Positions 6,601-55,800 of a stretch of 64,000 nucleotides of DNA are shown in pieces. The stretch's first letter is position 1; every line of letters begins with the position of its first letter. This stretch comes from Amoebophrya sp. A120 (Eukaryota; Protista; Dinoflagellata). The DNA is taken from positions 6,428,476 through 6,492,475 of the forward strand of contig CAJINV010000002.1 of the NCBI GenBank assembly GCA_905178155.1, in the 5' to 3' direction. Below the pieces are notes generated by a model, which was not told the origin of the DNA, ran no database searches, and was given only the letters and a program-made list of their open reading frames with translations. Both the position numbers and the translations under genes were made by a program.

Positions 6601-9600
6601 GAGAACCCGATGCAGACCTTCGACAACGTGCACGATTTAACCCGGTGGTGGACCATTGAGACCCGCACGATGCCGAAGCCCAGCGTAAACAAGCGGTCGC
6701 AGATCAAGGACCGATTGGACTTGAATTACAAGGTGCACAGTTTCGCGGTGTACCCCAGGATCTCGTTGTTTCAGCTCCAAACCTTGAACTACATTGGGCA
6801 AAGCGAGACCGATGTGAAAATCTCCTTCGACATCATTTCTGATTTAGCCCCGCAAGCGACCATTCTCATCACCGCCCCCACGGAGTTCCAGTTCCGCGTT
6901 TGGCGGGGCGAGAACTCGCTGACTTTCGGCGACCCACCGTTGCCCAGCTACCCCTGGAACCCGCCACGCGATGGGTCGACCGGCCTGTTTTTGAACGTTT
7001 TACCGGACGGCACGGCGCACAGGCCCTGCATCTCGCCGTCGATAAGTGCGGCGGACTACCAGGTGATGGACCAGTTGTTCCCCAGGAGTGCGATCAAGGA
7101 CATCACGCGGTTGCCCGAGTACGTGTCGTGTGTCGTGATCAATGCGTACCAAATTATGATCACCAACACGGAGCCCGTTCGTGGCGGCCGGACTTTGATG
7201 GCCGGACCGGTGTATGAGTTTCTGATTGATGAAGTAGTGAACCCGCCGCGCACACCCTTCACCGCTTCAAACCTGTGGCGGATCGTTGCGAATACCACTA
7301 CCGCGCTCGGGCAGGAGGTGTGGGCGACGTATCCTGAGTAAAAACATCCCCACCCCATAGTCAAGATGGGGAATCTGCTAGACAAATCAACAAGCTTAGG
7401 TTGTTGCGCATGACAAATTTGGGCTCCTAGTGTAATGCTGTCTACGTCGTCCAGCAGCATCACAAATCTAGCCTATAATGCTGATAGATTGGAGCATTAC
7501 AAATTCCAAAACACGACTTGGAAATGCTTCCCATGGGTCTCCGCATGAGAAACATTTTGAGCATGCAAATTTGCATGACAGCTATGTGCTGGGGACGTTT
7601 TTACATAGGATACGACAGAGGGGTGGGTCATCTTTCCGGAATTGGCCATCACGCGAATCTCCAGCGACAACCCGGCCAATGGGCTGTTTACGACGTTCAC
7701 GATTCAAGTCGGAGTGTTGACCACAGTCCCCGGCCAGGGATCGATTCTGCTTCGCGCCCCGCGGGACGACTTTTACTTCGGGCCACGACTGGCGTTTGAC
7801 GGACCGCCGCCGGATCTGCTGAACCCGATCCCCCGCGCGTCTGGGGGCAGCCCGCCGAGGCCGGCGAAGGGCGGCCCGGACCTGCCCTGCACCATCGAGG
7901 CGCCGCAGCCGCAAGGGAATCTGCAGTTTATCTGCCCGATAACCAAGACGCCCTGCGAAGAGGTATGAACATAGGATTTGGGCCGTTTATCGTTTTAGTG
8001 TAGAAGTTGTAAGTTGTCTAAGTGCACTCTTACGTACAAGAATCAATTTGATGTTCTTGACAAGGGGGAGTATCGTATGAAAGATGAAACATAAATTACT
8101 AGTAGTAGCATCCTGGTGTCTACTGTTCCTTTTGTTGAACAAATCACAGAAAGCGCGGCTCGAGGCCTTGGACCTCGGGCGTTCTGCGAAGGACCAGCTG
8201 TATGCGCAGGAAATTCAGGCCCTGGAATTTCCCTGTCAGCAAGTGACCGCGGACTGCGCGTCGCGGCGGTACGACAAGTTGTTCTCCTGCAAGTACCGAA
8301 CGATTTTGAAGGAACAGGTAATGACGCCCGCGGAGCTCCAGGCAAACCAGGACCTCGTGACCGCGTGGAACTCGGCGAACACCAAGCAACTGACCTGGGA
8401 ACCTTTCGAGGCCCAACTGGAGATCACGCTCGCGACGGACATTTCGATGAAGCAGGACCAGGTGTTGACATTCTTGCTCACCGGGTACAACACGCTGTAT
8501 CGGAATTTCACCGCGTGGCAGAACGAATTTACGTTTTCCACCAGAAACGCGGACTCGGGGAAGACGACCCTGGATGAGCGAAAAGGCGTGCCCGGCTTCA
8601 AGCTTTTCGGTGTGGTATGGATTGCAAAAATGTCTGGGTCTGGAAGAATCCGAGTTTGTCATGCTAAATCTGATCGATGCAAAAATCTGTATTGCGTGAC
8701 CAGCAAAAGTCCTCAGTTTTGGTTACCAGAAGCCGGCATTTCTCATGTGGACTTAGCATTGCATAGCCTTCTCAAAACTTGTGATGCTAGAGCCCACATT
8801 CCAGACCTTCTGGGTCAAGCAAAATATGGATGACAAACCCGGCAACATTCCAGACCCAGACATTTTTGCATTTGATATGTGGTCTACGTCAGCAAAATCG
8901 ACGCGCAGGAGACGAAAGTGTCGAACACCTACAACCGGGTGGAGATCACCTTCCGGCTGACCAATCCGGTGAAGCAACGAGGGCTAATTATTCTGAGGAA
9001 AAACATCCCCACCCCAGAGTTGCCATGCAAATCTGCATGCCAACAAAGTTGCTCATGCGAAGCCCCATGAGAAGCTATTTCTAGTTGTGTTTTGGGATTT
9101 GTGATGCTAGGAATAGCATGATATGCTAGATCTGTGATGCTGCTGAACTAGCTAAACAGGTTTGCACTACGAGGCCAAACTTGTCATGCGAAGCAACCAA
9201 AGTTGGCTGATTTGTCTAGCAGATTTCCCATCTTTATTCTGGTATGGGGACGTTTTTACTCAGGATATTAATCCGGATCCAATACCCTACGAAGTTCGAA
9301 CTCCCGCCGCAGTCCGGCGGCGGCGCGGGAACCAACACGATTGATGTCAGTGAAACCGTGCCGAGAAAGGCGAAGCGGAGCCAGAGGGGGAACATCATCG
9401 AGTTAGACAGTGAGGACGAGGACTTCCCAGCTGGGTTAGACATGATGATCACGATCACTTTGTCCAATCCCGACATCTCCCCCGGGCCATCGGAGAACAT
9501 CTGGATCTTTGAGACGTTTGAGGTGTCGCCACAAGCACCAACGGGAACGACTCCGCCCGCCTCAGCGCTGACCATGATCGATTTGAACCGAGACGTGCAG

Positions 9601-12600
9601 GGATTCCGTATAGGCTCTTTTCGAAGTAGAAGGAAGATGCTTTTTTGTTCGTATGACTGAAGTGTCTGAAGATGCAGATGCTGATTCAGTATGACAGTAG
9701 TCGCATGAGATGTGGTTTTTATTTTGCCCAGCAAGACGCCAGTAAAACAATTTTAAGGTATTTACGGCGCGTTCCGTTCGACGAACGTAATTTCCACCAT
9801 TGACTCTCCGACTGTGGTGAACAAAGTCGCCGTCATATGCGAAGAAAAAAGTGTTACATTTACACATGGTGTTGCAGGCAACGCAAGACAGACAAGTTGT
9901 GTCATGCTGGATATGCTTAGGAGCCCGCTTCCATATTACGTGTTTATTTATTCCCTAGTGGTCTCTGCACTGCAAGTTTTCTCTGTCGTGCGGAGAAAGT
10001 TCTTTGTGTTGCTGAAGTTGCAACAAGCGTGTAACTACTGTAACATTTTTTTCTTGGGATACGGGACTTTCGTCCTCGAATCCGATCTCCGGTTTATTCC
10101 GTGCAAAAACGTCCCCACCCCAGAGTCAAGATGGGAATTTTGCAAAACAGATCCAGAAGTTTTTGCGGTTGTGCATGACAAGTTTGGGTCAGTAGTGTAG
10201 TGGTCCTTGGCTAGTGAAGGCACATCACAAACCTAGCTCCTTATCCTGATTGGAGCATGACAAAGTCCAAGACAGCATGAGAAAATGCTTCTCATGGGCC
10301 TCCGCATGAGAAACATTTTGAGCGTGCAGGTTTGCATGACAACCGCGTCGTTGTACTTGAGGATGTGTTATATGTCTCGGGCGCACGTACATACTAGCCT
10401 GCAGGGACGGCGGAGCCGGAAAAAATGGCACAGTATGGTTGGTGGCGAAATCAGAGTTGGAATATAGTGGCCGGGAGATGATGGTGATGGCGCTTTGGTG
10501 TCCGCCTGACCCACTCGCCCTGCGTCTCAGGCCACCTGCGGCTATGGCACAATGGGGGGGCAAAGTGCGTCGCTTTTTGTTTAGCATGACAACAACGGGG
10601 TGGGGACGTTTTTACATAGGATACGGCTCGACCCAACCGCGCGCTTGCAGATCTACATGCCTGTCGGCTTCATGCCCGTCGAGCTCTGCGGCGACTGGTC
10701 CCGGTCTTACCAGGACGGGAATCTAGTCTACACGGAGATCCCCCGTGGAACGTCCTGCCGCGCGATTAGCGACCCACTGGAGCCGGCGATCGAGTTGCGG
10801 CCCGGGGCGGTCTATGGATTGCAAAAATGTCTGGGTCTGGAAGGTTGCAACTTGTCATGCTAACTTTGGATGCTAAAAAAATCTGTATTGCATGACCAGC
10901 AAGGGGAACCAAGTTTGTGCTACGTGGGGAGGGCATTTGTCATGCTGTAGGGGCATCACAAAGCGCTCTAAAAATCTGTGATGCTACGGCATGCATCACA
11001 GACATCATGGGTCATAGAAAATATGCATGACAAATCTAGAAATCTTCCAGACCCAGACATTTTTACATTTGATACGGTCATCCAGTACGGGTTGGACTAC
11101 GCGTTTCAATTTGAGTATGGGACTGTCAGGATCGAAATCGACAAAATCGAAAAACTTGTGATGCACAAAATCGATGCCAGTTAGACCCACAGTTTGTAGT
11201 CGGCGCATGACAAATTTCCCTCGTCCTGGAAGCGAATCTGTCATGTGGTTTAGGACAAAAGAGCTTCCCTCTGTCATGCTTGCCACCAGCCCAATTCTTG
11301 ACCCTTAGCAGGACTACAATCTGCCTCCTTTGCGTTCTCTGCAATAGAGTCACTTTTTGTGTCGCATTTTCTGCATGACAGATTATTTCGACTTTGTCGA
11401 TTTCGATCCTGACACATCCATATTGAGGTCATCAATGCGGCTTATATCACGGACGAAAACAACTGGCGGTTCCAAACCATGCTGAACAACGTGGTCCTGC
11501 ACTTGGACAGAAACGTCTTTGGGTTCTCGCTGCAGGAACTGCAGGACGTATAGTTTTGTTTTTTGATTTGATCTTGAACTTGATCATGAAGAAGAAGTTT
11601 GTCCCACCCCCCGGGTGGCATAATTTTGGATGTTACAGGTCTACTTGTTCCTTTGTGTATGATTTATTACACGGGTCGTTTTGAGCAACTACGTAGATAT
11701 TTATGATGTCATTGGAGTACTTCTTGTGGTTCTGTAGTGGTACTAGTAGAATCCATGCTCTCGTCAACATCAATCAGATTTCCGTCCAACCCTACGACAC
11801 CACTCGTTCCGTGATGGGTCGATTGGCCGTGCAGATGCGAAGTACAAAGCTCATCACCGGCGCCTTATGGGAGTGTCAGGTTTGAAATCGACAAAGTTGA
11901 AACAACTTGCAATGCAGAAAATCGATACCAGTTGGAAGCCCAATTTTCAAGCAATGCATGACAAATTTTCCGAGCACCGGAATCCAATTTGTCATGCTGT
12001 TTGGGCACAGACGACTGCTTTTGTCATGTTACTTTAGCAGCTCTATCTCAAACCCTAAGCAGGCTGACAGTCGGCCTCACTTGCCATCCCGGCAAGACAG
12101 GCACTTCGTGCCTTGCATTTTATGCATGACAAACTATTTCAACTTTGTTGATTTCAAACCTGACGCTTCCATACGCATCCGACATTGTGATCACCGCGCC
12201 CATCGGGTTCAAGCCGCTGATATCGCAAGAAAAAACTGTTTCACTGTAAACTTGTAATGCAGAAACTGCATCTCAGAAGTGTTTGTCTTGCTACACATGC
12301 AAGACAGGCGATTTTTAGCTGTGTTTTCCCTTAGGAACCTCGCATGGCAAGTTTTCCCTGTCATGTGTAACGAACTTGTCATGCCAAACTTGCAAAATCC
12401 TTACAGTGAAACACTTTTTTCGCGCGATAGCTGAACACGCTGTTCACCATCCTGAACATTCCCGGCGGACACACGCTCGCTTCCACCACCACGTCGACCA
12501 AGGATAACAACAAGGTGACCTTCACTTTAGATTCCCAGGACCGCGTCGAGCCGAATCTGATGTTCGGGGTGGAAGTGTGGATCACCAATCCCGAGTTCAC

Positions 12601-15774: not shown

Positions 15775-18700
15775 ATGACGACGATTCTCGCCTCCGGGCT
15801 GCAGGTCAACTTCGAGAAGTTGTACCAGTCGATGCTATATGCATTGCAAATTTGTCTGGGTCTGGAAACTTGTGATGCAAGGAAGGAAATAGTGACAGTA
15901 AGCACACTGTTGTAATGCGCTGCCAAGCATGACAAGTTTTCTCGTGGTTCTGAGTTGCGTACTCCGCGTCAGAAACCGCGTTTTTGCATGACAGGCAAGA
16001 GGAGCTCTCTGCGGCCACGCAAAATACAGAGTTCGGAGTCCCGTGCCAGACTAGCATGACAAATTTCGCAATCTCGCAAAGGACCGACACAGACATATTT
16101 GCAGTCGATATGGGATTCAACAATTTTCAGCTGAGCATGAAACTTCCCAACAACTGGCTGACCAACGAGCTCGATGTGTCCAAATTCCTGAACGCGAAGA
16201 TTCAGAACGAGATTTTGAAAATCTCTCGGTCCCACAGCCAAAGAATCAAGCCGATTTCCACCGCGGCGCAGAAGAAGCTGGAAGACGAAAATTACTATGG
16301 TGATAATCATAATATTAACGTGACCCCGGAGCAAATTATCGAGGAGGAAAACCGCATTGAGACGCGGAGGATTTTGTTCCTAAAACCAACCCGGATAAAG
16401 TTCTCGCAGCTGGTAGTGTACCCAGTTTTTGGAAGCGGGAAGCGCGGGCGGGAGACGAAGGAGCACGGCGGGCAGGCGCTGCAAGAGGCCGAGGCGACCA
16501 TTACTTGCAGCGCGTTCACCGGGTTCACGGAGGAGATGATGGATCTGCAGGAGAAGGAGCGGGACACGTTTCAGACGTTGCTGCAGGAACAAAAAAACCG
16601 GATCCGGGAAGAAGGATGGAAAAAGGCGGAGGAGAAGATAATTGCGCCGGCAGCTGCACCAGGTACGTACTGAGGGTTTGCATTTGATTGTATGTACTTA
16701 TTCGAATTTAATCATAATCTACCGACGTAAAGATCGTTTTTTGAAACGACAAACAGAACAAGGGATCAGACGGTAGATTATATACTCGACACGTTTCAGC
16801 AATCAAATGCGGCTGAATTTTTGTCCACTCGACACACGTCGACCACAGGAGCCTCATCCATTCAAGTACCGCTCGCGGGTAGTTCAAAGGAATCGGTGGC
16901 AGGGCAGATCGCGCAATCGAACGAGCAGCCGTTGCCGTCGCCGCCGATCGAGTCCGGGCCGGATTGGAATTCTGCTGAGGGGGTTGCAAGGAAAGACATG
17001 GCGGAAAATGTCGCCAAAGCAGGGCTTATCAGATGCAAAAATGTCTGGGTCTGGAAGAAATCAGACGTTTGTCATGCATTTTCTACATCTACAAAAAGGT
17101 CTGGAATGCACACAGAGCATGACAAACTCTGTGGAGGCTTCTCCATGCCTATTCCGCATGACAAATGCCCTCTTCTGGAGACAAAATTCGGGTACCTTTC
17201 GCTGACTACGCAATACAGATTTTTGCCTGTTCCAGAATCCGCATCACAAGTTCGCATCCTTCCAGACCCAGACATTTTTGTATTTGATAGGGCTTTTGGG
17301 GCAAGGTAAAATATCTTTGATGTTGGGCTTGTTGTTGTCATGAAACGATGAAAAATCCGCGGGCCACTACATCACTACGTCTTTTTCGATTTTTGGGTTT
17401 GGTTTTGGTTTTCCATGGAAGTATGGCGGCGCGAGCTCATTTTTTTTGAGAAATTTTTTTTTTTCATATGCCATTTAAATGCCTAGCAATATGTGCATTT
17501 ACTGGCCCCATTACTGTAGCGCCCCATTACTGGCTAAGCTTCGCGCGCCCGTCTTGTTTTAGGGCTCGGGGGATTCCGTTTTGCCTTCCTGCGGAAGGTG
17601 TCTCGGGGGCCGCCATTTCGCCTTCCTTGCCCTCTGGTAGGTCTCTCCCTGGCGGAAGGACCGCTGCTTGATTGCCTCTCTGGGGAGTGTGAGTTGTTTA
17701 TTTCCTGGCTGGCGCGAAGCTTTCGCCATCGACTCCAGATTGATAAATGGCCCGAGCTTATTGACACCTCCTGCGCGACGTGGGTGGTTCGGGGTTTTTC
17801 TGTGCCCGGGCTCGCCGAGGCGTTTTGGATTCGGCTTCGGAGCGCGCAGGTTTGCGGCTGTCCGGGGCTGTGCGCGTGTGCTTACAGCTTTTGCGCCGGG
17901 GGCCCCGGGTTTTTTCTTTTGTGTCCCGGGGCCTCGTCGGCCTCGTCACATCTACGCCCCGGGTCCCCGGAACATGCATGGCCCGTCGGAAGGCAGGCCA
18001 GCCTTCGGTAAAGGTAGGAAGGTGAGGGGGTTGCAAGGAAAGACATGGCGGAAAATGTCGCCAAAGCAGGGCTTTTGGGGCAAGGTAAAATTGCTTTGAT
18101 GTAAGTGGTTGAGCTTGTTGTCATGATGAAACGGTGAAAAATCCGCGGACCACTACATCACTACGTCTTTTTCGTTTTTTGGGTTTGGTTTTCCATGGAA
18201 GTAGTTCCAAATGCAAAAATGCCAAGAATCATGATGGCGACACGACTGACACCACCAGTCAATAAAAAAAAAACAGTGAACATCCTAAACGAGCCCTGGA
18301 TTCGGAACCATGAGTGTTTCAGGAAGGTTTCATATCCAAGAAAAGAACATTGTGGGTGTAACTTTGTTGGAGGAACAGCATTACAAATGTGTCTGGCATG
18401 ACAGCAAAAACCTGTCATGCGCAGATAGTACGTGAAAACGCCCTTGAATGGGCTCTACAATGCATGCCCAGCATGACAGACGTAATCATCTTGCATGTTG
18501 CGCATCACAAATTTACACTAGCAACGTTTTTTTGTTGGATATTTCAACGTGGAAAATGGTCCACCGCTACGTGTCGTCCGTGGCGCTCACGTACGTGCAG
18601 ATGTTCGGAACTGAAAAAGCTGCCGAGGCAGTGAAAAAGCGCACCACCCCCGCGTACGTATCAACGGACCCGAAAGAGCTGATTTTGGGACCGGACCACA

Positions 18701-21700
18701 GGGATCACCACAAGATCCAGCACCAACTCGACCCGCAGAGAATCGACCACGATGTGGACCCGGCGAAATTCATCTCCCTCGAGGAAGCTCTGGGAACACA
18801 GGTAATAACGGATTACGCGTTCACGGATATGCGCCACTTGCGAATTCCCGCGCAGAACGCGAACTACATCCGAGATGAGTTCCGGAAAGTCTTGAAGGAG
18901 TGTGTGGAGCACTATCACAAGCACTACGACAACCGAGGAATTTCGCGGGCACTTCCGCCTGACAACACGGAATTCAGTGGTGAGCGAAGCTTTCCGGCGG
19001 GCGTTATAAAAACATCAAAGGGCGGACCACAACACGAAGTTCCAACTTTCGCACAAGAGCAGGCGGGAGGCAGTAGCAGCAGTAGTTACTACCACAAGAA
19101 TCCTGCTCCTACTAGCGCAGCACCTCCGAACGGCGACGCGGCCCTGCGGGACTATATGGTCCACCAGAGTAATAAAAACAAGGGAAATATTAAAAATGCA
19201 GCAGCGGCTGCATCTATGCAACAGCAGAGCAACATGAAAGGCGGCGGGGGCAAAGGTGCGAAGGATAAACAATACATGATAGAGCAGTACCACCTCGCTC
19301 TGCAACGGGAAAGAGAGCAGAAAAAGATGCAAACACAGCAAATACCGACCAATTCTTCGATGTTGGCCAATCAGTCGCAAGACGAGCAAGCTGCTGCAAT
19401 GCGACGGCCAGAGGCGATGGTTCCTCCGGCGCCGGGGGGTGGTATTGGTTTTCCACCAGGTTACGAAGCTGCTGCTGGGCCGCCGCAACCGCCATCCTCG
19501 CAGTACATTCTGCAACAGCAGCAGAACTACGCGCAGATTCCACCTGGGATGAAGCAGGGTTTTATTGCAGAGGAAGAGCTAGGAACATCAAACGGAAAAG
19601 GCAGTGGAATGAAGGGACTGTATCAACAACAGCCAGGAGCGCAACAGCAGCAGCTGCAGCAGCAATTTAACATGCACCAGACGGAGCAGAGTTTCTACAA
19701 AGGCGGGCCGCCCATCATGAATAGTAAAGCTACTCCTGTTCATGTTCATCCTGCTGGGAGCAGTAGTTTCGGAGGTGGTGGTGGAAAACAAGGCGGCAAT
19801 AAAAACGGCAAGGACCAGCAAACCTACTCCAAGGGCGATTACGTGCGCATGCTGCAAGAGAAAGGGTACCGAATTCAGAAGGAGGGGCAGCATCAAGCGT
19901 GTCCGCCCGAAGATGAAGGGATACAAGGTAGATTACGTGAACAAGAAGACGCTGAAGGAAATTCTGCAGCCATGAGAAAGAGCACCGCTAGTACTGGGAG
20001 GAAAACAAGTGCATCTTCACGAGCAGGGCCTTCTGTTGTTGACAACCAGGAAATGAAGCAACGCTACTTGTTCTCCAACACGGACGAAGGACCAATTGTG
20101 AAACAAGAGCAGGCTACTTTGTTAGAAGAGGACGCCATGGACCGTGAAGAAGTTGAGCTTCCCATCGAGCAAACTCGGTTGATTCCCTTTTACGACGAGG
20201 GCGGAGCAAAAATAAACCTAGAACAACCTCTGCTGTCACGAAGACTCTTCGAGGGCGAGCACACGATGCAGGAACAAAATGATAGAAGAGACAACAACAC
20301 CTACAACAGTCCGGCGGCTACTGCAGGAAATAAAGAACAAAAGAAAAACTACCAAAAAACTACTCCCGCGCATTTCTTTTCCCCCACGAAACGGAACCAG
20401 AAAGCCGACCGGCCGAAGTACCTGCTGACCCACCCGTTCCCGGTCATCCGGGTGATGAAGCACCGGCCGAAGATCCGGGATTCCAATGGAAAACCGGTTA
20501 TGGACAAGAGAACGAACCAAGTGAAATTGGGGAAAGAGGAGTGGTTCTCCGTCGACAACCGCAGATTGCTCTGCTTGCAAAGGCGAGCGGTTCTGTACGA
20601 AGAATTGTTTGACATTGACTGCTATCAAATGCAAAAATGTCTGGGTCTGGGAGCTTCCGAGACTTGTCATGCAGATTTTCCATGATCCATGTCGTATGGA
20701 ATGCAGCACCTAGCATGACAGATTCTGTGAGATCCCTACCATGCGTATCCTGCGTGAGAAACTCCCTGCCAACTTGGTCGAAAGTGGACAGCTTTTGGCA
20801 CGCATGCAACACAGATTTCTGCATGATCCAGAATTAGCATGACAAGTTGCAACCTTCCAGACCCAGACATATTTGCAATCCATAACTCCTACGTGACCGG
20901 CGTCGAGATGTTCGACGACACCCACTTCTCCGAGATCAAAAAGTTCCGCACGCGAACCAACGGGGAAACCATCGAAATTGGGTTTTACAAGGGCCACGGC
21001 CGGGCGAACGTCGGGCGGGATACAAAAAACAACGGGGGGGCCATATTGCAATGAAAAATGCCCCCACCCCCGAACTCGGGAGCATTTGTATTGCAAACCT
21101 TTCCAAATGAAACATTCGCCCTCTTACATCTATCAGCATCACAGATTTCCGATCGTGAATAGCAAAAGTTTGTATTGCAAAAGATCCTAGCAAGAGCGGC
21201 GCTTGTCATGCAAGCGATGCGACACACACCTAGACTCTGCATCAGAAAGGTTTATACTCCTTTCATGCATGACAGAAAGTTTTCATTTGGAAACTTTGCA
21301 TCACAAATTTTTGCAACTTTGGGGGTGGGGGCATTTTCCTCGCGATAGACCAGCACGGATAACGAGCAGGCGGAGAAGAAAGATGAGCGGTGGTACTGGT
21401 GTTGGGAGGCGAACGACTGGAAGTTGCACGTCACTGAGAAGAAGGAGAAGAAGATCGGCATGCACAATTACATGTGGGATCACCTGCAGGCAAGGGATTT
21501 TGTCAAAACCTACGTCCGGAAGAACAAAAGGTATACTATACAGTTTTCACAACTTATCTAAAGTACTTTCTGAGAGACTTGTTGCAGCACTGGATTTGAG
21601 ACAAAATGACGAAGATTATTCGATTATAAAGACACTACATTTTTATGTAAATTAAAATTACAAAACTACAGCGACCTGCCCGACCCGGGTGAACTGCTGA

Positions 21701-22125
21701 AGCCACACATCTGGATCGACCCAGAAGCGATCCAGTGTGTCCACCTGGACTGCGGGTTGTGGGAGTACCGGGTAGGCAACGAGTCTTTCGGGCCTTTCTC
21801 GAACATGCAAATGCAAACCTGGGCGGCCCAAGGGAGGCTTCCGCCGAGTCTGCCCTGCCGAAGGAAGGTGCACGAGAAGCTCCGCCTCGAGGCCGCGGAC
21901 AGCACGGAGGGTGGGTCGTACTCGTCGCCTGAAAGGGTACTTGGCACGGTGGACGGCACCGGGAGGCGCAAGCAGCTCGCGAGTCCGCAGCTGCTGCACG
22001 AACACAAGACGTGGCACCCCGTGTCGAGCTACCATGGGTTCCAAGCTAGTGTCGAGTACGATGACCCGCTCTTGTGTCCGGTCGACGCGGACGACCAAAC
22101 CCTGCAGGACCTGCAGGGAGAATGA
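15775..22125 (+). CDS. ~1240-aa protein with split ParB/Srx-like motifs, Q-rich linker and C-terminal GYF-like domain
   Basis: Exons 15775-15837,16116-16662,16849-17026,17295-17305,(optional 18022-18084),18277-18332,18547-20622,20890-21043,21353-21530,21672-22125 join in frame. Motifs KPTRIKFSQ..YPVF, FPVIRV, FSVDNRRLLCL, KFRTRTNG; GYF-like WEYRVGNESFGPFSNMQMQTW. Domain calls are by motif recognition only. Confidence 0.7.
15838..16110. mobile_element. Introner family A, opposite orientation to 3922
   Basis: Interior is the reverse complement of the 3922 copy; TSD TGCTA/TGGGA; frame restored. Confidence 0.85.
16976..18203 (+). repeat. Direct duplication (16976-17423 vs 18023-18203) flanking a ~600-bp GC-skewed insert
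   Basis: Both copies run TGAGGGGGTTGCAAGG...TTCCATGGAAGTA; only the first contains the introner; insert 17424-18022 has T-runs near its left end. Confidence 0.9.
17027..17289. mobile_element. Introner family A
   Basis: TSD GGGCT/GGGCT; empty-site paralog at ~18069-18073. Confidence 0.95.
18333..18541. mobile_element. Introner family E
   Basis: TSD TTTCA/TTTCA; KVS-TWK. Confidence 0.9.
20623..20884. mobile_element. Introner family A
   Basis: TSD ACTGC/ACTCC; sister of 63169. Confidence 0.92.
21044..21347. mobile_element. Introner family G (TIR TAT.GC...GAAAATGCCCCCACCCCC)
   Basis: TSD GGCCA/GACCA; GGA-STD. Confidence 0.88.
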
Positions 22126-22699: not shown

Positions 22700-25000
22700 T
22701 GCTGTTTTGTTGCACGATGCGTTATGACCAGGGGCCAAACTTGAGTCCAGGCCGTTTGCGTCTTTTTTGTATCACGTTGCTCAGATCGTGATCGAGATCT
22801 TGATCTACGTCGATAACGGTATGAGTCTCAAGGAGAGTGCTGCTGAAAGATAAAAACTTTCTGACGTTTTTGCTGAGGCAGACTGGTTGACGGGTTTGCT
22901 GGATCACGTCCCGAATGAGCCAAGGCGTTCACTATCGGGCGCGTATTCGTAATATATTGCCTGACCTTGTCGACTGTGCTGGTCAGTGTCGGGGGCGTCC
23001 GTGAAAGCACTCCCCCACTGCGCCCTGTGTTCTGCAAACATATCCGCTTTTTTTGGGACGACTCGTGTGTTGGGCTGCCGGCCTTCTATTTTTGTCGTTT
23101 CTTGTACGATGCGGCAAGCGCCGGAGACGGGGCTGGGAATCTATCAGCCGGCCGCCGCTCCTAGGGTGGCTAGGCATTGCCTTGGGACCGCTCGCGTGTT
23201 TTCACGCCGCGCCGAGCTGATGCGCTGCCGAGCTGATGCGATCGGCCTGGCGCTCTGTGCCTTCTGGCGTTCCGCGGGGCCGGGTGTGTTTTCGGTCCGT
23301 CGGCGGGTGGCGCCCTCGTTGGGGCCGATTCCGGCCGAAAGGCCGCCGGCCCACGAAACAGAAGAGCGCGCAGACGCGGGCCCGGCTACACGGCTCGCAG
23401 TCTTAAAGCTGAGGGCCTCCCGATGTGTTGTGGCGATTAGGAGGGGCGCCGACGAAGATCAGCCTGACAGGGAGCACGCTTCCCGTTGGCGTTTCTCCGC
23501 ACGTCACCAGGCGGGGGCCGGGCCGCGCACGGGCGGAAAAACCGAGGCAGCCGCGCGGCCTCTTCGCTTGATGCCAACACCAATAGCCTGGCACGCCTGG
23601 GCGGGTAGCGCCGGGGGGGCCGGGAAGGGGCCGGGCCGGGCGGGGGGATCCCAAAAGAGCCGGACGACGACGACGGCCCCTGGCCAAACCAACACGGAAG
23701 CAACGGGCCGGACTACCGGGGAATGGGCACGCAAGTAGTGCCCAAGCGATGGGGCGCGCGCCTTCGAAGCACTCGCGGGCAGCCGGGGCGCGAATGGCGC
23801 TGCCCCTTTCCCGCCCGGGCCGCGAAGTTCCGCCCCGCCCCTGCGCCCCCGGCTCTTTCTTCAGCCTCGGCGGCGCTAGGCCAGCCGGCCGCAGGGCCGC
23901 CGGGTCTGGCGGCGCGCGGCCAACTCGCAGCAGAGGCGGCTGTGCTAGGGCAGGGCAGGCGCCCAGCCTTCCGGCGGCGGGTGGGGCTCCAGGCAGCCGC
24001 GTCGAAGTTCTGCGCGAAGTTAATGAAAGCAGCCGGGCAACAGGCGCTCGAGAATTATCGCAGAGGCGAAAAATTTACCGGACCCGCACAGACGCCGGCG
24101 CGAAGATACCAACTGGACGGCCGGCCAGGCGCGGCGCGGCCGGGGGCTGGATGCACCAAGGGCAGCCCCCCCCCCCACGAGGGGCATCAGGAGGGAGCGC
24201 CCCTGGCGCCCGGAGAGCCGGGGGCGCCCGCAAAAGCAAGGGCCCCGGCCTGGCCCATCAGCAAGCGGGCCGGCGGCGCAGCCCGGGGCGCGCGTCTCCG
24301 TGTGGAGAGGTGCGCGCCGGGCCTTTGCGCCGCACGGCGAAAGGGGGCCCCGTTCGCTTGGTGTTTGCTGCATGTTCTCAGCGCCCGCGCCCCTGCGCCA
24401 GTATTGGGGGCGCGGGGCATCGTGCCCCGTCGCGCCCGCCCTTATTCATTGGGGCCCCCCGTGCGCGCTTTCTTTTGTGTTCTGTGGCGCCGCCGGAGTG
24501 CAAGGGCAGCCCGGCATCGCCCGGCCGTCCTAGTATGGCGCCGCGCCCCTGCGGGGTCCGCGGCCGAATGCCAGTCCTGCCTCAGTCGGGGCAGTATGTG
24601 GCTGCGCCCGGGTACATCGCATATGCGGCCCGGCATTTTTGCAGACGCATGTGCTCGCAGGCGCCCCAGGTTGCGGTTTGCCTCGATTTGAATACACACT
24701 CGCTGTTCTTATTCGGCGTAGGCATTGACAGCGTGACTGCGCCCTGACTCTGCCGTGGAGCATGTTAATGACCACGGGAACCTGGTGCGCAGCCATATCT
24801 GATGTTGTCCATAGCAAAGAACATCAGTTGCTTTTTGTCAGACGATCTGACACCTTTTCTCATCAATGATGTTCGCTAGTGCGTTGATGTTGTCGAGGGA
24901 AACCGAGTCCGAAACAAGATGACGCTGCAAAACTGCTGTCGCATTCGCTTTCGAAACCAAATTGCCCAATACGTTTCATCGTTGTCGCTCGATTTGTTTC
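22700..25000. repeat. Intergenic probable TE relic with extremely GC-rich core (~23100-24700)
   Basis: Open in many frames only because of GC richness; broken ORF-like minus-strand flanks; family not recognisable; boundaries approximate. Confidence 0.4.
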
Positions 25001-25610
25001 ATCAGAATGTCTTCCCGGCAAAAGAAAAGAGGCACTGCTGGTGCTCTAGCTGATCACTACAAAGAAGTGTAAACCTTTTTGATGTTGCATTTTTCTCCAT
25101 TCCTGGAACACAATCTGGATGAGATGAAAATAGTCGAGGGTTGTAATATACTTACTAATCTTCACCACAACGTGAACATTTCGTGGAGAAATTGTTGTCG
25201 AAAGTTCTAAAACTGCATAGGACAACAAGCGCAGGCAGTAGAGAAGTGGAAGCAAGAACCTACATGATAAAAAGCGTGGTCCATCATGTAAGGGCCCGAA
25301 GCGGCTGGTTAGGGATATCGATAGGGCAGTATTTTCTTCAAAGCGGAATGCTAGACAATTTTTGCTGCATTTTTAGAAGGGCTACTAGATCTCCTACAGT
25401 ATAATGTCGCCGCCGTCTTCATCCGCTACGGCGAACTACTGGCCGCGCGGCGCCGCTGCTCACCTGTAGTGCGCACCAGAGTCCCCCTCCACCTCCTCTG
25501 TCTGTACTTACAACCAGAGCGATTCCTCTGACAGCAGTTGGCCACAAGCGGGCGCGGGAATTGGAGGCACGGGGAGCTTCCTTAATTATAGCAGCACCGC
25601 TTTCACCGCA

Positions 25611-44660: not shown

Positions 44661-46203
44661 ATGTTTAGCGGTGGCGTGCATCATTCCCCGGTGCGGCCGC
44701 GCGCCAAGACGCAGTGGGGGCGCGACTGGACCAAGGTCGGGTACCAGCAGAATCTGGGCACGAATCTTTCAAGCGTGCAGAAGTCGGCCGTCCCCACGAA
44801 GCAGCACCATCATCATGCTACCACGGCGATGAAACAAGCCACGAAGAAAACGGGTGGCGCGAGTGCTGCGGCTGCGGTGCCAGCTCCGCCGAGGGTGATC
44901 GGTGCGACGCTCCCGATGCTGGTTAACAATAACCATGGCATGCCGAAGCTGAAGCCGTATCAAACCATCGTGGTGCAGCCGCTGACGGGGAAAAAGATCG
45001 TCCTAGACTCCCGGACCATGCAGCCGATCGCGGTACTGAAGATGTTTTGTTGTCGTGGTCACATCCGCGATGCTACATTTCTTGAACCAAAAGGCTGCTA
45101 GACATGCTTTTGCTTTTATAGTAGGTGCCATTTTTGGTTCTCGACATCTGTACTGAGATACTTATTTAACACGACAGGATTCCGTGCGACTATCAGTAGA
45201 CTATGATGATGTTTCAAGTTGAACACGTCTTCAAGACTTGTTTTATGCAGGTTTCACTTTATTGCACGACCACGATTGCATTGTCGACAAAGAATCGAAA
45301 AATCGCAGGACCTAACCACCTATGAAATGCAAAAGCATCGTACTAGTATAAATCGCATGACAAATCACCTCAGCATGAGAAATAGAATTTGTAATGCGGA
45401 TTCAACTTGAGAAAGAAATTTGTAATGCATGAATGCGATCAGTACGACTACGATACTTTTGCACAGGATACCACCACCGAAAGCGGGAAAGTGAAGATGG
45501 TGCCGATTCGTGCTGACCACGTCGTGGACAAGGAGAACCAGAAGCCTATCCTGAGTAAAAACGTACCCACACCAGAGTTGTAATGCAAATCTGCATGCTG
45601 AAAATGTTTCTCATGCGGAGCCTCATGAGAAGCATTTTCTAGTCGTGTTTTGCAATTTGTCATGCTCCAATCAGCATGGTATGCTAGGTCTGTGATGCTG
45701 CTGAGCTAGCTCAAACAGCACTACACTACGAATCCAAATTTGTCATGCAAAACAGCCAAAACTTGTGGATTTGTCGAGCCGATTTCCCATCTTGACTATG
45801 GTGTGGGTACGTTTTTACTCAGGATAAAGCCGAGCCAGCAGCAGGCAGTGGTGAGCAAGATGAACAATGGCACCACCCGCAACCCTATCAAATGTAAAAA
45901 TGTCTGGGTCTGGAAACTTGTGATGCTGGGTGGCGTATCATGAGGAGGCCACAAGTGCTCGCTCAGCATGACAAGTTTCTGAGCTTCTAGGTGTTGCTTA
46001 TTCTACATGACAAACTGCGTTTCTGCATGACAGAAAAATGGCGCTCTTGGGTAACGTGCATGACAGATTTGAGAGTCATGCCAGACAAGCATGACAAACA
46101 TGCAATCTTCCAGACCCAGACATTTTTACATTCGATAAACCCGCACACGCACCTGTCTCCGGCGACCACGGCGCACCTGTCTCCGGGTGACCACTCTCCC
46201 TGA
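44661..46203 (+). CDS. Hypothetical ~189-aa protein
   Basis: Exons 44661-45032,45309-45320,45476-45546,45832-45885,46143-46203 (one GT-AG intron, three TIR elements) join in frame to TGA. Confidence 0.7.
45321..45470. mobile_element. Introner family H (TIR TAT...TGCAAAAG.ATCGTA)
   Basis: TSD CCACC/CCACC; 150 bp. Confidence 0.9.
45547..45826. mobile_element. Introner family B
   Basis: TSD AAGCC/AAGCC; perfect ~27-bp TIR. Confidence 0.94.
45886..46137. mobile_element. Introner family A
   Basis: TSD AACCC/AACCC. Confidence 0.93.
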
Positions 46204-46209
46204 GGGACC

Positions 46210-46473
46210 TATCAAATGCAAACATGTCTGGGTCTGGAAGAATGCAAATTTTTGGCATGGTGTTTTTGCATGACACAGAGGGTCGGTCATGGAAGCCCTC
46301 GCATCACAGATTTCGAGAACGTTCCGTGATGCTTCATCCGCATGACAAATGCACCTGTTTCGTGACAGAAAATGGGAGCCTTTTGCGGCATATGCATGAG
46401 AGAGTTGTGCGTGTTGTGGAATTTGCACAACAAATTCGGATCCTTCCAGACCCAGACATTTTTGCATTTGATA
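46210..46473. mobile_element. Introner family A in putative 3' UTR
   Basis: TSD GGACC/GGACC; starts 6 nt after the inferred stop codon. Confidence 0.9.
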
Positions 46474-52809: not shown

Positions 52810-55800
52810 ATGGGGCGCGGTAAAGGCGGCAAGGGCAAAAAGGGCGGCGGTGGGGGCGGCGCTTTTTCGGAGACGCCTGCACTGTATGTGGATTTTCGCT
52901 TCGATACTCCCTCGGCGCACCCGCCCACTATCAAAGGCTACTTCTACCTGGCGGGGCGCAAGCGCTACCCGGAATTTCGCGCGTACCCGTACGTACTGCG
53001 GCCGGACGACAAGTGTCTCACACCCGAGCATCACGAGCCTATCGTCGGCAATTTTGACACGCCCGAGGAATTTTACGACAGAAAGTGGCAAACCCGCGTC
53101 CTCTGGACGCTGTACGACTACAGCAAGGGAGACTTGAATTACGTGCCGATCCTGTCGTCTTACGAATCAAGGCTTACTGTCCGTGTAGAGGACGCGAGCT
53201 GGGAGGAGTGGGAAAAAAGGAACCCGGATTCGCCACGCAAATTATCCTGAGCAAAAGCAGGGTCCCCATCGCATCCTGGAGAAGTCAAGATGGCAAATCT
53301 GCTATACAAACCAACAACTTTTGGCTGATGTTGCGCATGATAAGTTCGGGATCGTAGCAAAGTCGTCTTTATCTGGTCGTGCAGCAGCATGTCAGATGCT
53401 TAACGTCGTGATTCAAGCATGACAAATTTCATTTTCAACAATAAAACACGACTGGAAAAAATAAATGCCTCTCGTGGGGCTCCTGCGCATGAGAAACATT
53501 TTCGGCATGCAGATTCGCATGACAACAACAAGAACTCTGGGATCGTGGGGACGTAGTTTTTACTCAGGATGCAGGTACTCCGTCGATTACTTTTCGACGA
53601 CCAGCGGACAAAACAAAATTCCTCGCGGCCGGGAAGAAAAGCTGTCCCGGAAGTTGTCCGAGGTCTTGCGGCACCGGGCGGAACATTTAGGGTTGCAGAT
53701 CGACGCCGCCGGATTTGTGTTGATTTCGGACTTGCTGAACTGCAACGACTACCCTCTGCAAATGTTGTGTCGCACTAGTAAAAATCGCAGTCATGCAAGA
53801 CAAATTATCTCTTTTTCGAGCTAAATCAGCGTGAAAAAGTGCATTTGTTACTGTTATGTTGGTGACCTGATCATGCTGATTTGTTGTACTGTAATTACCA
53901 ATAGGACTAGTATTTGGGGCTCGCGCCGCCGTGTTGGCACAACGGCGCGGGGATCTGCGCATAACAATAGAAAAAGCAGTACTGCAGCAACTAGAAACAG
54001 TTCGAAGAGGCTTGGTTGAAGAGCTGGAGCGTGCTTTCTCTGGGGCTGACTGTTCCCGGAAGGGCGGCCGACGCACTAACGCCGCGCGATGATGGCAAAC
54101 AGCTTGATGGCAACAAAGTACAAAAACAAAAAGGAAGAGCACGCGTAGCCAGGAACATAAAATGAAGAAGAAATGGCGGCCAGTAGAGCGACCGGCCCAC
54201 CAACTGCAGCCCAACGCCTAGCGCGCCAGATCCGGCCGGCCTCTGTACTGCCAAAAGCCGGGTCAGGTAGAGGTAGATAAGGGCACGCACTTCCGCTTGG
54301 TGCGCGGCAAGGTAGCCGTGCCTCCTACCTTCTAGGAAATGTAAAGCAGACCCGTGCCGGGCGGCGTCCCCCCTTTCTACTTCAGCTACCCAGCAAGCGC
54401 AGGCAGCTAGGGCGAGAACGCGAGCCCTTGGGGTCCGCAGGTAGGCTCTTTTTTTAGGTGCGACTCCTGGCCGCCGCGCTGGTACTCGTCGTAGCAGGTG
54501 GCCGGCCAAAGCGCTGCAACCTGCCGAAGGCGCCGGCGCCGCTGCACGGATGTAATCTCTGTGGCGGCTGGCATCTGTTGCCTTCGCATCAAGCCGCCCC
54601 CTGTGCGCCGAGAGTTTCTCTTGCGTTTGGTCTTGCGCTTGTTGTGTGCATGCTTTTCCATCCGGGCTGCCCATCGGCGAGGCTTGGCCCGATACCCTGT
54701 AGCAAGTAGCAGGACCACGCAACTGCTGGCGGTTGCCTCCCAACAAATCTAACTAAGAGGCACGCCTGCCAGGGGTGTTTTTGAGTTTTACTCTCGGCGC
54801 CGGCGGCCACACCTCAAAGCATGGAGGCAACAGCCATGCGGCTGGCTGTTTCTGATGTGTTAGCCACAGCCCCATTGCGGTTGGTTCGTTGTTTCTGTGC
54901 TCGGTTTCCTAGGCAAGCACCAGGGGCAGCAGATCGCCCGGGTAGCTGCGGTTGCTCAGTGTCAAAAACGATAAAAAAAGGCTTTTGGCTGTCGAGCTGT
55001 AGATGCTCGCTATAGGCGGAAGCTGTAGAGCTTAGGCTCTAGAGCATCACCAAACAGCTGTAGAGATTCAGCTCTAGAGATTGAGCTCTACAGGTTTTCG
55101 AGCTATAGAGGCGCTCGCCCTAATCGTTATCAATCTTTTTTCGCAGTAGCGTGGTGATTCGCCAAAAAAAATTAGAAAAAAAAAGGTCATCTCTAGAGAT
55201 TTGATCCTTCTTTGCCCAGATTTGAGCCTAGTCTGCACCACAGTAGCATGCAGATTTCAGAAACAAAGCAAGTAGCCTTCTTTGAGCCTTCTTTGGTTCC
55301 AGGTTTGACCCTAGTTGCTGCAAGTACTATAGTTCTCTTGGCTAAACGAAAACGATACAACTTCATCAATTCATAACGCTTTCAAGCACTTCGCCCAGTC
55401 GTTGGTGGGGCAACACGCGGTCGGCAAGCAGGAGATCGTTTGGCTGGTGAAGGCGAACCAGAAGCAGCGCTTATCAAATGCAAAAATGTCTGGGTCTGGA
55501 AGAATGCAACTTGTGATGCTGCATTTGGATTCCAAAACAATCTGCATTGCATGAGTACCAAAGGGAATGCAATTTTTGCTCCGCCGAGAAGGCATTTGTC
55601 ATGCGGAATAGGCATCAGGAAGCCCTCAGAAAATCTGTATTGCTAGGGTATGCATCACAGACATCATGGCTCACGCAAAACGTGCATGACAACTGTCAGA
55701 ATCTTCCGGACCTAGACATTTTTACAGTTGATAGCGCTTTGAGTTGGACAATGCTTCCGATCCGGCCAAGATCCGCTGCACCCAGGGCCATTCGGTGAAA

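Follow-up and report, generated by a model that had tools for sequence, protein, structure and literature searches.

A protein-coding gene of Amoebophrya sp. A120 contains the end of one of its exons twice, once interrupted by a 263-bp element and once without it. Does the second copy preserve the site as it was before the element inserted, or did its empty site arise in another way? This question was addressed in a window of 64 kb, i.e. the whole stretch of DNA that was analysed. The translated exons of the window reproduce the protein of the gene (P0001) letter for letter, and the source label of P0001 is Amoebophrya sp. A120; judged by this match, the genome of the window is that of A120. 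The features of the locus are as follows:

15775..22125, + strand: host gene; it encodes P0001 (1238 aa, GYF domain at the C-terminus) and contains five TAT..ATA introners besides three other introns
16976..17026, + strand: copy 1, exon part 5′ of the introner, ending with the left GGGCT (17022-17026)
17027..17289, + strand: introner, 263 bp, TAT..ATA ends, 31-bp TIR, no coding role seen
17290..17294, + strand: right GGGCT (target-site duplication, TSD), matching the left GGGCT at 17022-17026
17295..17305, + strand: copy 1, remaining 11 nt of the exon before the GT donor
17306..17423, + strand: copy 1, intron part, comprising the initial 118 nt of the GT-AG intron, of which the final 3 nt (17421-17423) are shared with another copy of the spacer family
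17424..18022, no strand assigned: spacer, a piece of an unclassified repeat family, 599 bp, 58% GC, with a 9-bp tandem repeat at 17930-17947
18023..18084, + strand: copy 2, exon part with the empty site (single GGGCT at 18069-18073); copies of the spacer family share its initial 7 nt (18023-18029)
18085..18276, + strand: complete GT-AG intron of 192 nt (duplicated part 18085-18203), with the acceptor AG ending at 18276

Filled and empty copies of the exon end

The duplicated stretch is composed of 62 bp of exon and 118 bp of intron, with copy 1 at 16976-17423 and copy 2 at 18023-18203. A preliminary description, made from the sequence, had reported GGGCT-[263-bp element]-GGGCT in copy 1 and a single GGGCT in copy 2, and the coordinates confirm this arrangement. 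Its term "local duplication" holds for the paired copies, which are however not adjacent, 599 bp (17424-18022) lying in between. With the introner and one GGGCT taken out, the exon copies are identical at all 62 nt. Identity between the copies ends 7 nt into the intron, of which only the first 118 of 192 nt were duplicated. The two intron copies (17306-17423 and 18085-18203) differ, depending on the alignment, at 5 of 110 columns with 5 gaps or at 9 of 112 columns with 2 gaps, much of this difference being slippage in short repeats. Both keep the donor start GTAAAA, and its presence in copy 2 bears out the earlier statement that this copy is not a fully spliced cDNA. A search of the window after element masking revealed no second local duplication of such kind. 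Two dispersed matches (82-88%) remained after masking, 329-427 / 10456-10558 and 580-628 / 53473-53524, and these likely represent other repeat families.

The preliminary description did not identify the element, although its class had already been described in Amoebophrya (PMC7789003). The introners of A120 are repeated non-canonical introns of about 250 nt, with inverted repeats and with direct repeats of 3-5 nt at their borders (Farhat et al., PMC7789003), and the legend of Fig. S19 in that paper names 5-bp direct repeats for A120. By its sequence features, the 263-bp element can be assigned to this class. It begins with TAT, 7 nt and an A-run, which fits the A120 introner motif (PMC7789003, section 11), and it shares with the published elements this start, the border repeats, the hairpin and the absence of a transposase; its TIR is 31 nt long, whereas motifs of 8-20 nt were reported. 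The TIR arms (17027-17057 and 17259-17289, 31 nt each) are 94% complementary, and their mismatches (2 of 31), being possibly inherited, are no measure of the age of the introner. A strong hairpin is predicted (MFE -110.1, z -6.71, none of 200 shuffles as good), as follows from the TIR.

The element is one of many. Seven near-full-length relatives, at 71-73% identity, were distinguished within the 64-kb window, and the 8002 contigs of sequencing run X1 that matched the window produced depth peaks at the introner ends, indicating that the element is repeated in the genome. The longest relative among those listed (X1 record 4) differs by 12 letters and 15 gap letters in 186, a divergence that sets no lower bound for the age of the introner, as there are 9378 further pieces besides those listed.

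Within the window, 31 TAT..ATA candidates (at least 14 of 20 complementary end bases) were identified. An exact 5-bp flanking repeat was present in 20 of them (chance expectation 0.04), and exact flanking repeats of 3, 4, 6, 7 or 8 bp in none. This 5-bp rule, together with the single GGGCT at the empty site, upholds the earlier interpretation of GGGCT as a 5-bp TSD. The element thus shows the fixed TSD length of a MITE or TIR DNA transposon, with the empty site as support. The first TSD base varies among the 20 intact cases, so AG is not required at the introners of the window. Introners with TIRs in Micromonas, Aureococcus, Fritillaria and Polarella (PMC11282704, PMC12130899) are likewise MITE-like, carry a TIR and a TSD, and become introns, but their GT/GC or AG splice sites are made up of TSD or element bases, whereas A120 needs no AG.

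Three complete introners with intact 5-bp repeats are located within 930 bp at 45547-46473, spaced about 60-70 bp apart. At 8989-10400, concentric inverted-repeat pairs (9019/10343, 9048/10314, 9175/10187 and 9209/10153) surround the elements 8989-9267 and 9836-10061, which may be neighbouring introners that are nested or inverted. Run X10 consists of raw RNA reads from a second sample labelled as the same species; 79 of its reads match the window, all at the ends of the introner and none on exons of the host gene. Between 68 and 76 reads of this run carry the TIR 17027-17058 with one difference and in one flanking context; they can be assigned to the same introner family, retained in a transcript from elsewhere, and are uninformative on the host gene.

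Splicing of the host transcript

P0001 and the spliced contigs, which are presumed to derive from RNA, contain one exon copy and lack the introner and one GGGCT. The clearest coordinates are provided by a contig of run X3 (record 9, presumed RNA) that joins exons across introns and carries 61 nt between 17027 and 18542. These 61 nt equal the prediction for removal of the introner and one GGGCT, with a donor after 17305 and an acceptor at 18276/18277. A contig of run X6 (record 14) has a GT..AG joint at 18082-18275 (cut +2) and continues, at its loose end, with the exon that precedes copy 1. Most simply, the spacer and copy 2 lie in one 971-nt intron, 17306-18276. The RNA cannot tell which exon copy supplies the last 16 nt; as the exon copies are identical, splicing that leads out of copy 1 into copy 2 would give an identical product. 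The spliced sequence restores exactly the sequence of the empty site.

Two other arrangements were considered and rejected. An acceptor at 18203-18204 is at odds with P0001, X3 record 9 and X6 record 14, which all use 18276/18277, and the same three sequences contain one exon copy, which argues against copy 2 being an extra in-frame exon.

Three other introners of the host gene, 15833-16115, 20618-20889 and 21039-21352, have unequal 5-bp repeats, and the left repeat copy is the one retained in their product: for 15833-16115, X3 record 9 matches up to 15836 and resumes at 16115, while for the other two P0001 carries the left-copy codons. The right repeat copy seems to be mostly intronic and free to drift, a pattern that sets the splice register without GT or AG.

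The spacer and the assembled arrangement

The spacer has no second match within the window, where the run-on motif of its family was likewise not found; it gave no matches in Rfam, and none in Pfam among the five ORFs searched of seven listed. Summed contig depth in X1 was 222-917 on 17472-18056, against about 44 on the flanks; this depth is not a copy number, and it indicates that the spacer belongs to a repeat family. Contigs of this family differ from the spacer by 0-3% and run beyond its ends. A rough hand count from contig tables, which omit 9 rows with indels and the differences close to contig ends, gave about 8 differing sites in 599 (~1%). The 9-bp tandem repeat (17930-17947) is missing from several other copies of the family. 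Few family contigs include the left portion of the spacer (17424-17570), and alternative left segments begin at 17520, 17533, 17563-17567 and 17648; the family is a putative mosaic repeat. Elsewhere in the window, a GC-rich block at about 23000-25400 has long open frames in several phases, no TAT..ATA element and no spacer match.

At the left join, one spacer-family contig (X2 record 1) matches up to 17421, which gives a 3-nt overlap with the duplicated intron end. At the right join, two contigs (X2 record 7 and X3 record 11) match up to 18029, i.e. 7 nt into copy 2, before unrelated letters follow; the spacer-family contigs of X7 and X8 stop matching at 18022, so the 7-nt overlap is not found in every variant. 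The chance of such overlaps is 0.057 for 3 nt and 0.0005 for 7 nt. Copy 2 stops exactly at the position matching the start of the spacer in copy 1. A foreign piece between duplicates, with microhomology at the joins, is the signature of iterative template switching (FoSTeS/MMBIR, PMC5120786). Here the insert was copied from elsewhere in the genome and microhomology was found at both joins (on the left in one contig, and with X7 and X8 variants lacking it on the right), so that the duplication with its foreign insert is likely the product of a template switch. The locus differs from the duplications of PMC5120786 in being of sub-kilobase size and from a protist, and its template, presumed to be DNA, might be RNA. 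A non-LTR retro-insertion with a long TSD would be expected to leave poly(A) or an element 3′ end at one junction, together with RT-family sequence; the spacer has a T-rich stretch 15-40 nt inward from its left end rather than at that end, none of the five ORFs searched matches Pfam, and one other family copy extends to the left end.

Sequences from 8 of the 12 listed runs (X1-X3 and X6-X10) were compared with the window, and the empty site is represented among the read-derived contigs. One of them (X2 record 8) bridges it without differences over 18023-18332. An X1 contig covering 18045-18405, also with 0 differences, has a depth of 41.2 compared with 43.2, 44.5 and 43.3 for flanking contigs (about 95%), which argues against a second haplotype at half depth, although these runs represent one sample, possibly the assembly's own source, and so test the assembler rather than the strain. 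Mis-assembled haplotypes, named in the preliminary description as the case that would refute its reading, are on this evidence unlikely.

For the filled copy, no contig covers 17290-17394 (the copy-1 intron) in any of the four runs examined in detail, the X1 depth of 37.1 in the bin 17355-17471 is unassignable to one contig, and none of the read-derived pieces listed spans the whole stretch. The join of the introner to the first intron copy, the join of that copy to the spacer, and the order of the pieces are given by the assembly alone. The shared 52 nt are crossed by two contigs, and each of these pairs its ends in a manner opposite to the window. X2 record 8 carries 930 further letters before 18023, a length reaching 16046, and then copy 2, while X7 record 22 comprises the spacer end, the shared exon and the introner start, with 30 and 28 letters on its outer sides, below the 31-letter rule of the tool. 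Short-word assembly graphs are unable to phase such a repeat, and they prune short links into high-depth repeats.

The opposite pairing would be expected if the gene were single and element-free here and the exon-introner-intron piece had come from a minor haplotype or from elsewhere, inside a repeat. Such an assembly artefact is very improbable, because the graphs cannot phase the repeat and Nanopore reads were used to check the published scaffolds. X7 record 22 itself contains the spacer-to-exon and exon-to-introner joins, and the depth of the empty-site contig argues against a half-and-half mix. In the published A120 assembly, scaffolds were cut at breakpoints after the Nanopore check; short-read gap closing, which would leave room for an artefact, was also used (PMC7789003).

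Origin of the empty site

The pair of copies had been presented as direct evidence for insertion. This is too strong, since four routes yield the same empty site and no outgroup was found. The three routes considered in the preliminary description (later insertion, removal at the DNA level and a partly processed RNA template) stay, but it omitted an origin from two alleles, which is the best fit to the divergence. In metagenomes, a pattern search with P0001 gave 24 pattern hits, none of them confirmed, and a site-pattern scan gave no matches; the protein homologs P0002 and P0003 are alignable at the protein ends and poorly at the insertion site.

We see about an even chance that the introner arrived after the duplication, copy 2 being the pre-insertion state; the probabilities given to the routes are a matter of judgement. 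Later insertion is ranked first, since it calls for nothing beyond ordinary events and the genome shows a net gain of introners. Net gain in A120 is the published reading, in a paper that treats gain versus loss as undecidable and the origin of introners as undeterminable (PMC7789003), and given this reading one insertion is likelier than one precise loss.

As suggested by the junctions, DNA synthesis would have passed through the exon and 118 nt of the intron and then switched, by way of a 3-nt match, to a repeat at another place in the genome. After 599 nt of the repeat had been copied, it would have jumped back at a 7-nt match to a point 62 nt before the donor, and the exon end and intron start would thereby have been copied twice around a foreign piece. 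To judge from the mRNA product, the extra 780 nt could have been accommodated without cost inside one longer intron (17306-18276). Next, copy 1 would have received a TIR element at a staggered 5-nt cut, with duplication of GGGCT. Departure of the introner and one GGGCT from the mRNA would restore the empty-site sequence seen in the product.

The divergence of the parts is a poor fit to later insertion. The intron copies, with 5-9 differing sites and 2-5 gaps, appear older than either the exon copies, which do not differ in 62 nt even though copy 2 should be under no constraint, or the spacer, which is at about 8 of 599 sites from its family. In a test of this mismatch, P was 0.006-0.21 over six ways of counting (0.06-0.17 for the exon alone), 8 intron substitutions being taken where the gap-poor alignment has 9; P is 0.21, not significant, when intron slippage is counted as such. 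The mismatch would be explained if the template switch had returned to a diverged allele that never carried the introner, the insertion then being older than the duplication. Diverged introns, an identical exon (both copies selected until they were joined; P of no differences 0.33-0.49) and a young spacer would all follow in one step. We nevertheless consider such a two-allele chimera rather unlikely. It needs two genotypes in one nucleus, and three 151-nt pieces from an estuary metagenome (X9 records 14, 18 and 19) show 0 differences from the host gene in 453 nt, a hint of low allele diversity. Moreover, much of the intron difference is slippage, under which the mismatch loses significance; the figure for the spacer is approximate, and repeats are open to homogenisation. 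Under either of these routes, later insertion or two alleles, the empty site is true pre-insertion DNA, and jointly they make this the probable state of affairs. If true, the two-allele reading would be a fossil of DNA exchange between genotypes, with a frozen presence/absence polymorphism of the introner, and would bear on sex in Syndiniales, which is described as unknown in PMC13693241.

The introner is also spliced out and its paralog lies in the same intron, so an RNA template or a second allele can yield the empty site that insertion predicts. In the RNA-templated case, a break in the intron would have been repaired with nascent RNA of the gene itself as the template for reverse transcription, at a stage when the introner had already been spliced out and the downstream GT-AG intron had not; the enzyme would have jumped at the 7-nt match to a repeat transcript, so that spacer, copy 2 and empty site came from one event. 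No second event would be needed, and the exact coincidence of the copy 2 end with the spacer start in copy 1 is in agreement with this route, as are the spacer-family pieces in the presumed-RNA runs X3 and X6. A120 also contains both LTR and non-LTR retroelements (PMC7789003, section 5). The age mismatch applies here too, and neither spacer junction has a poly(A). DNA replication is, moreover, the mechanism to which duplications of this local kind with templated inserts are mostly attributed, as in PMC5120786. On balance, we regard the RNA-templated route as quite unlikely.

A similarly low probability is given to precise loss, in which the introner was once in both copies and left copy 2 either by cut-and-paste excision, with the 5-bp repeat serving in the repair, or through conversion with spliced cDNA. 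Conversion would leave the exon copies identical, with identity ending near the exon end, as observed 7 nt into the intron. However, only 16 nt of exon behind the site were available for pairing, there is no footprint, and elements at 71-73% identity persist in the window, from which loss seems slow.

The paralogous empty site is a standard test of transposition, applied e.g. to the MITE Submariner_Ps1 (PMC4495683). Homologous flanks, one target-site copy and the resulting evidence of transposition and TSD length are common to both cases; here the distance to the paralog is 1 kb, within a single intron, and splicing removes the element from the transcript as well. The literature examined contains no DNA-level empty site for an Amoebophrya introner, and the datasets of PMC12130899 and the preprint 10.1101/2020.10.14.339549 may hold such cases. 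Gain could be weighed against loss by searching the whole A120 genome for pairs of this filled-and-empty type, which one pair alone does not allow. The introner class, the 5-bp repeats and the method of the paralogous empty site were already known, and the locus is a clear though unexceptional case of an element already described. The filled and empty pair in one genome, together with the strict 5-bp rule, backs staggered-cut insertion as in DNA transposons.
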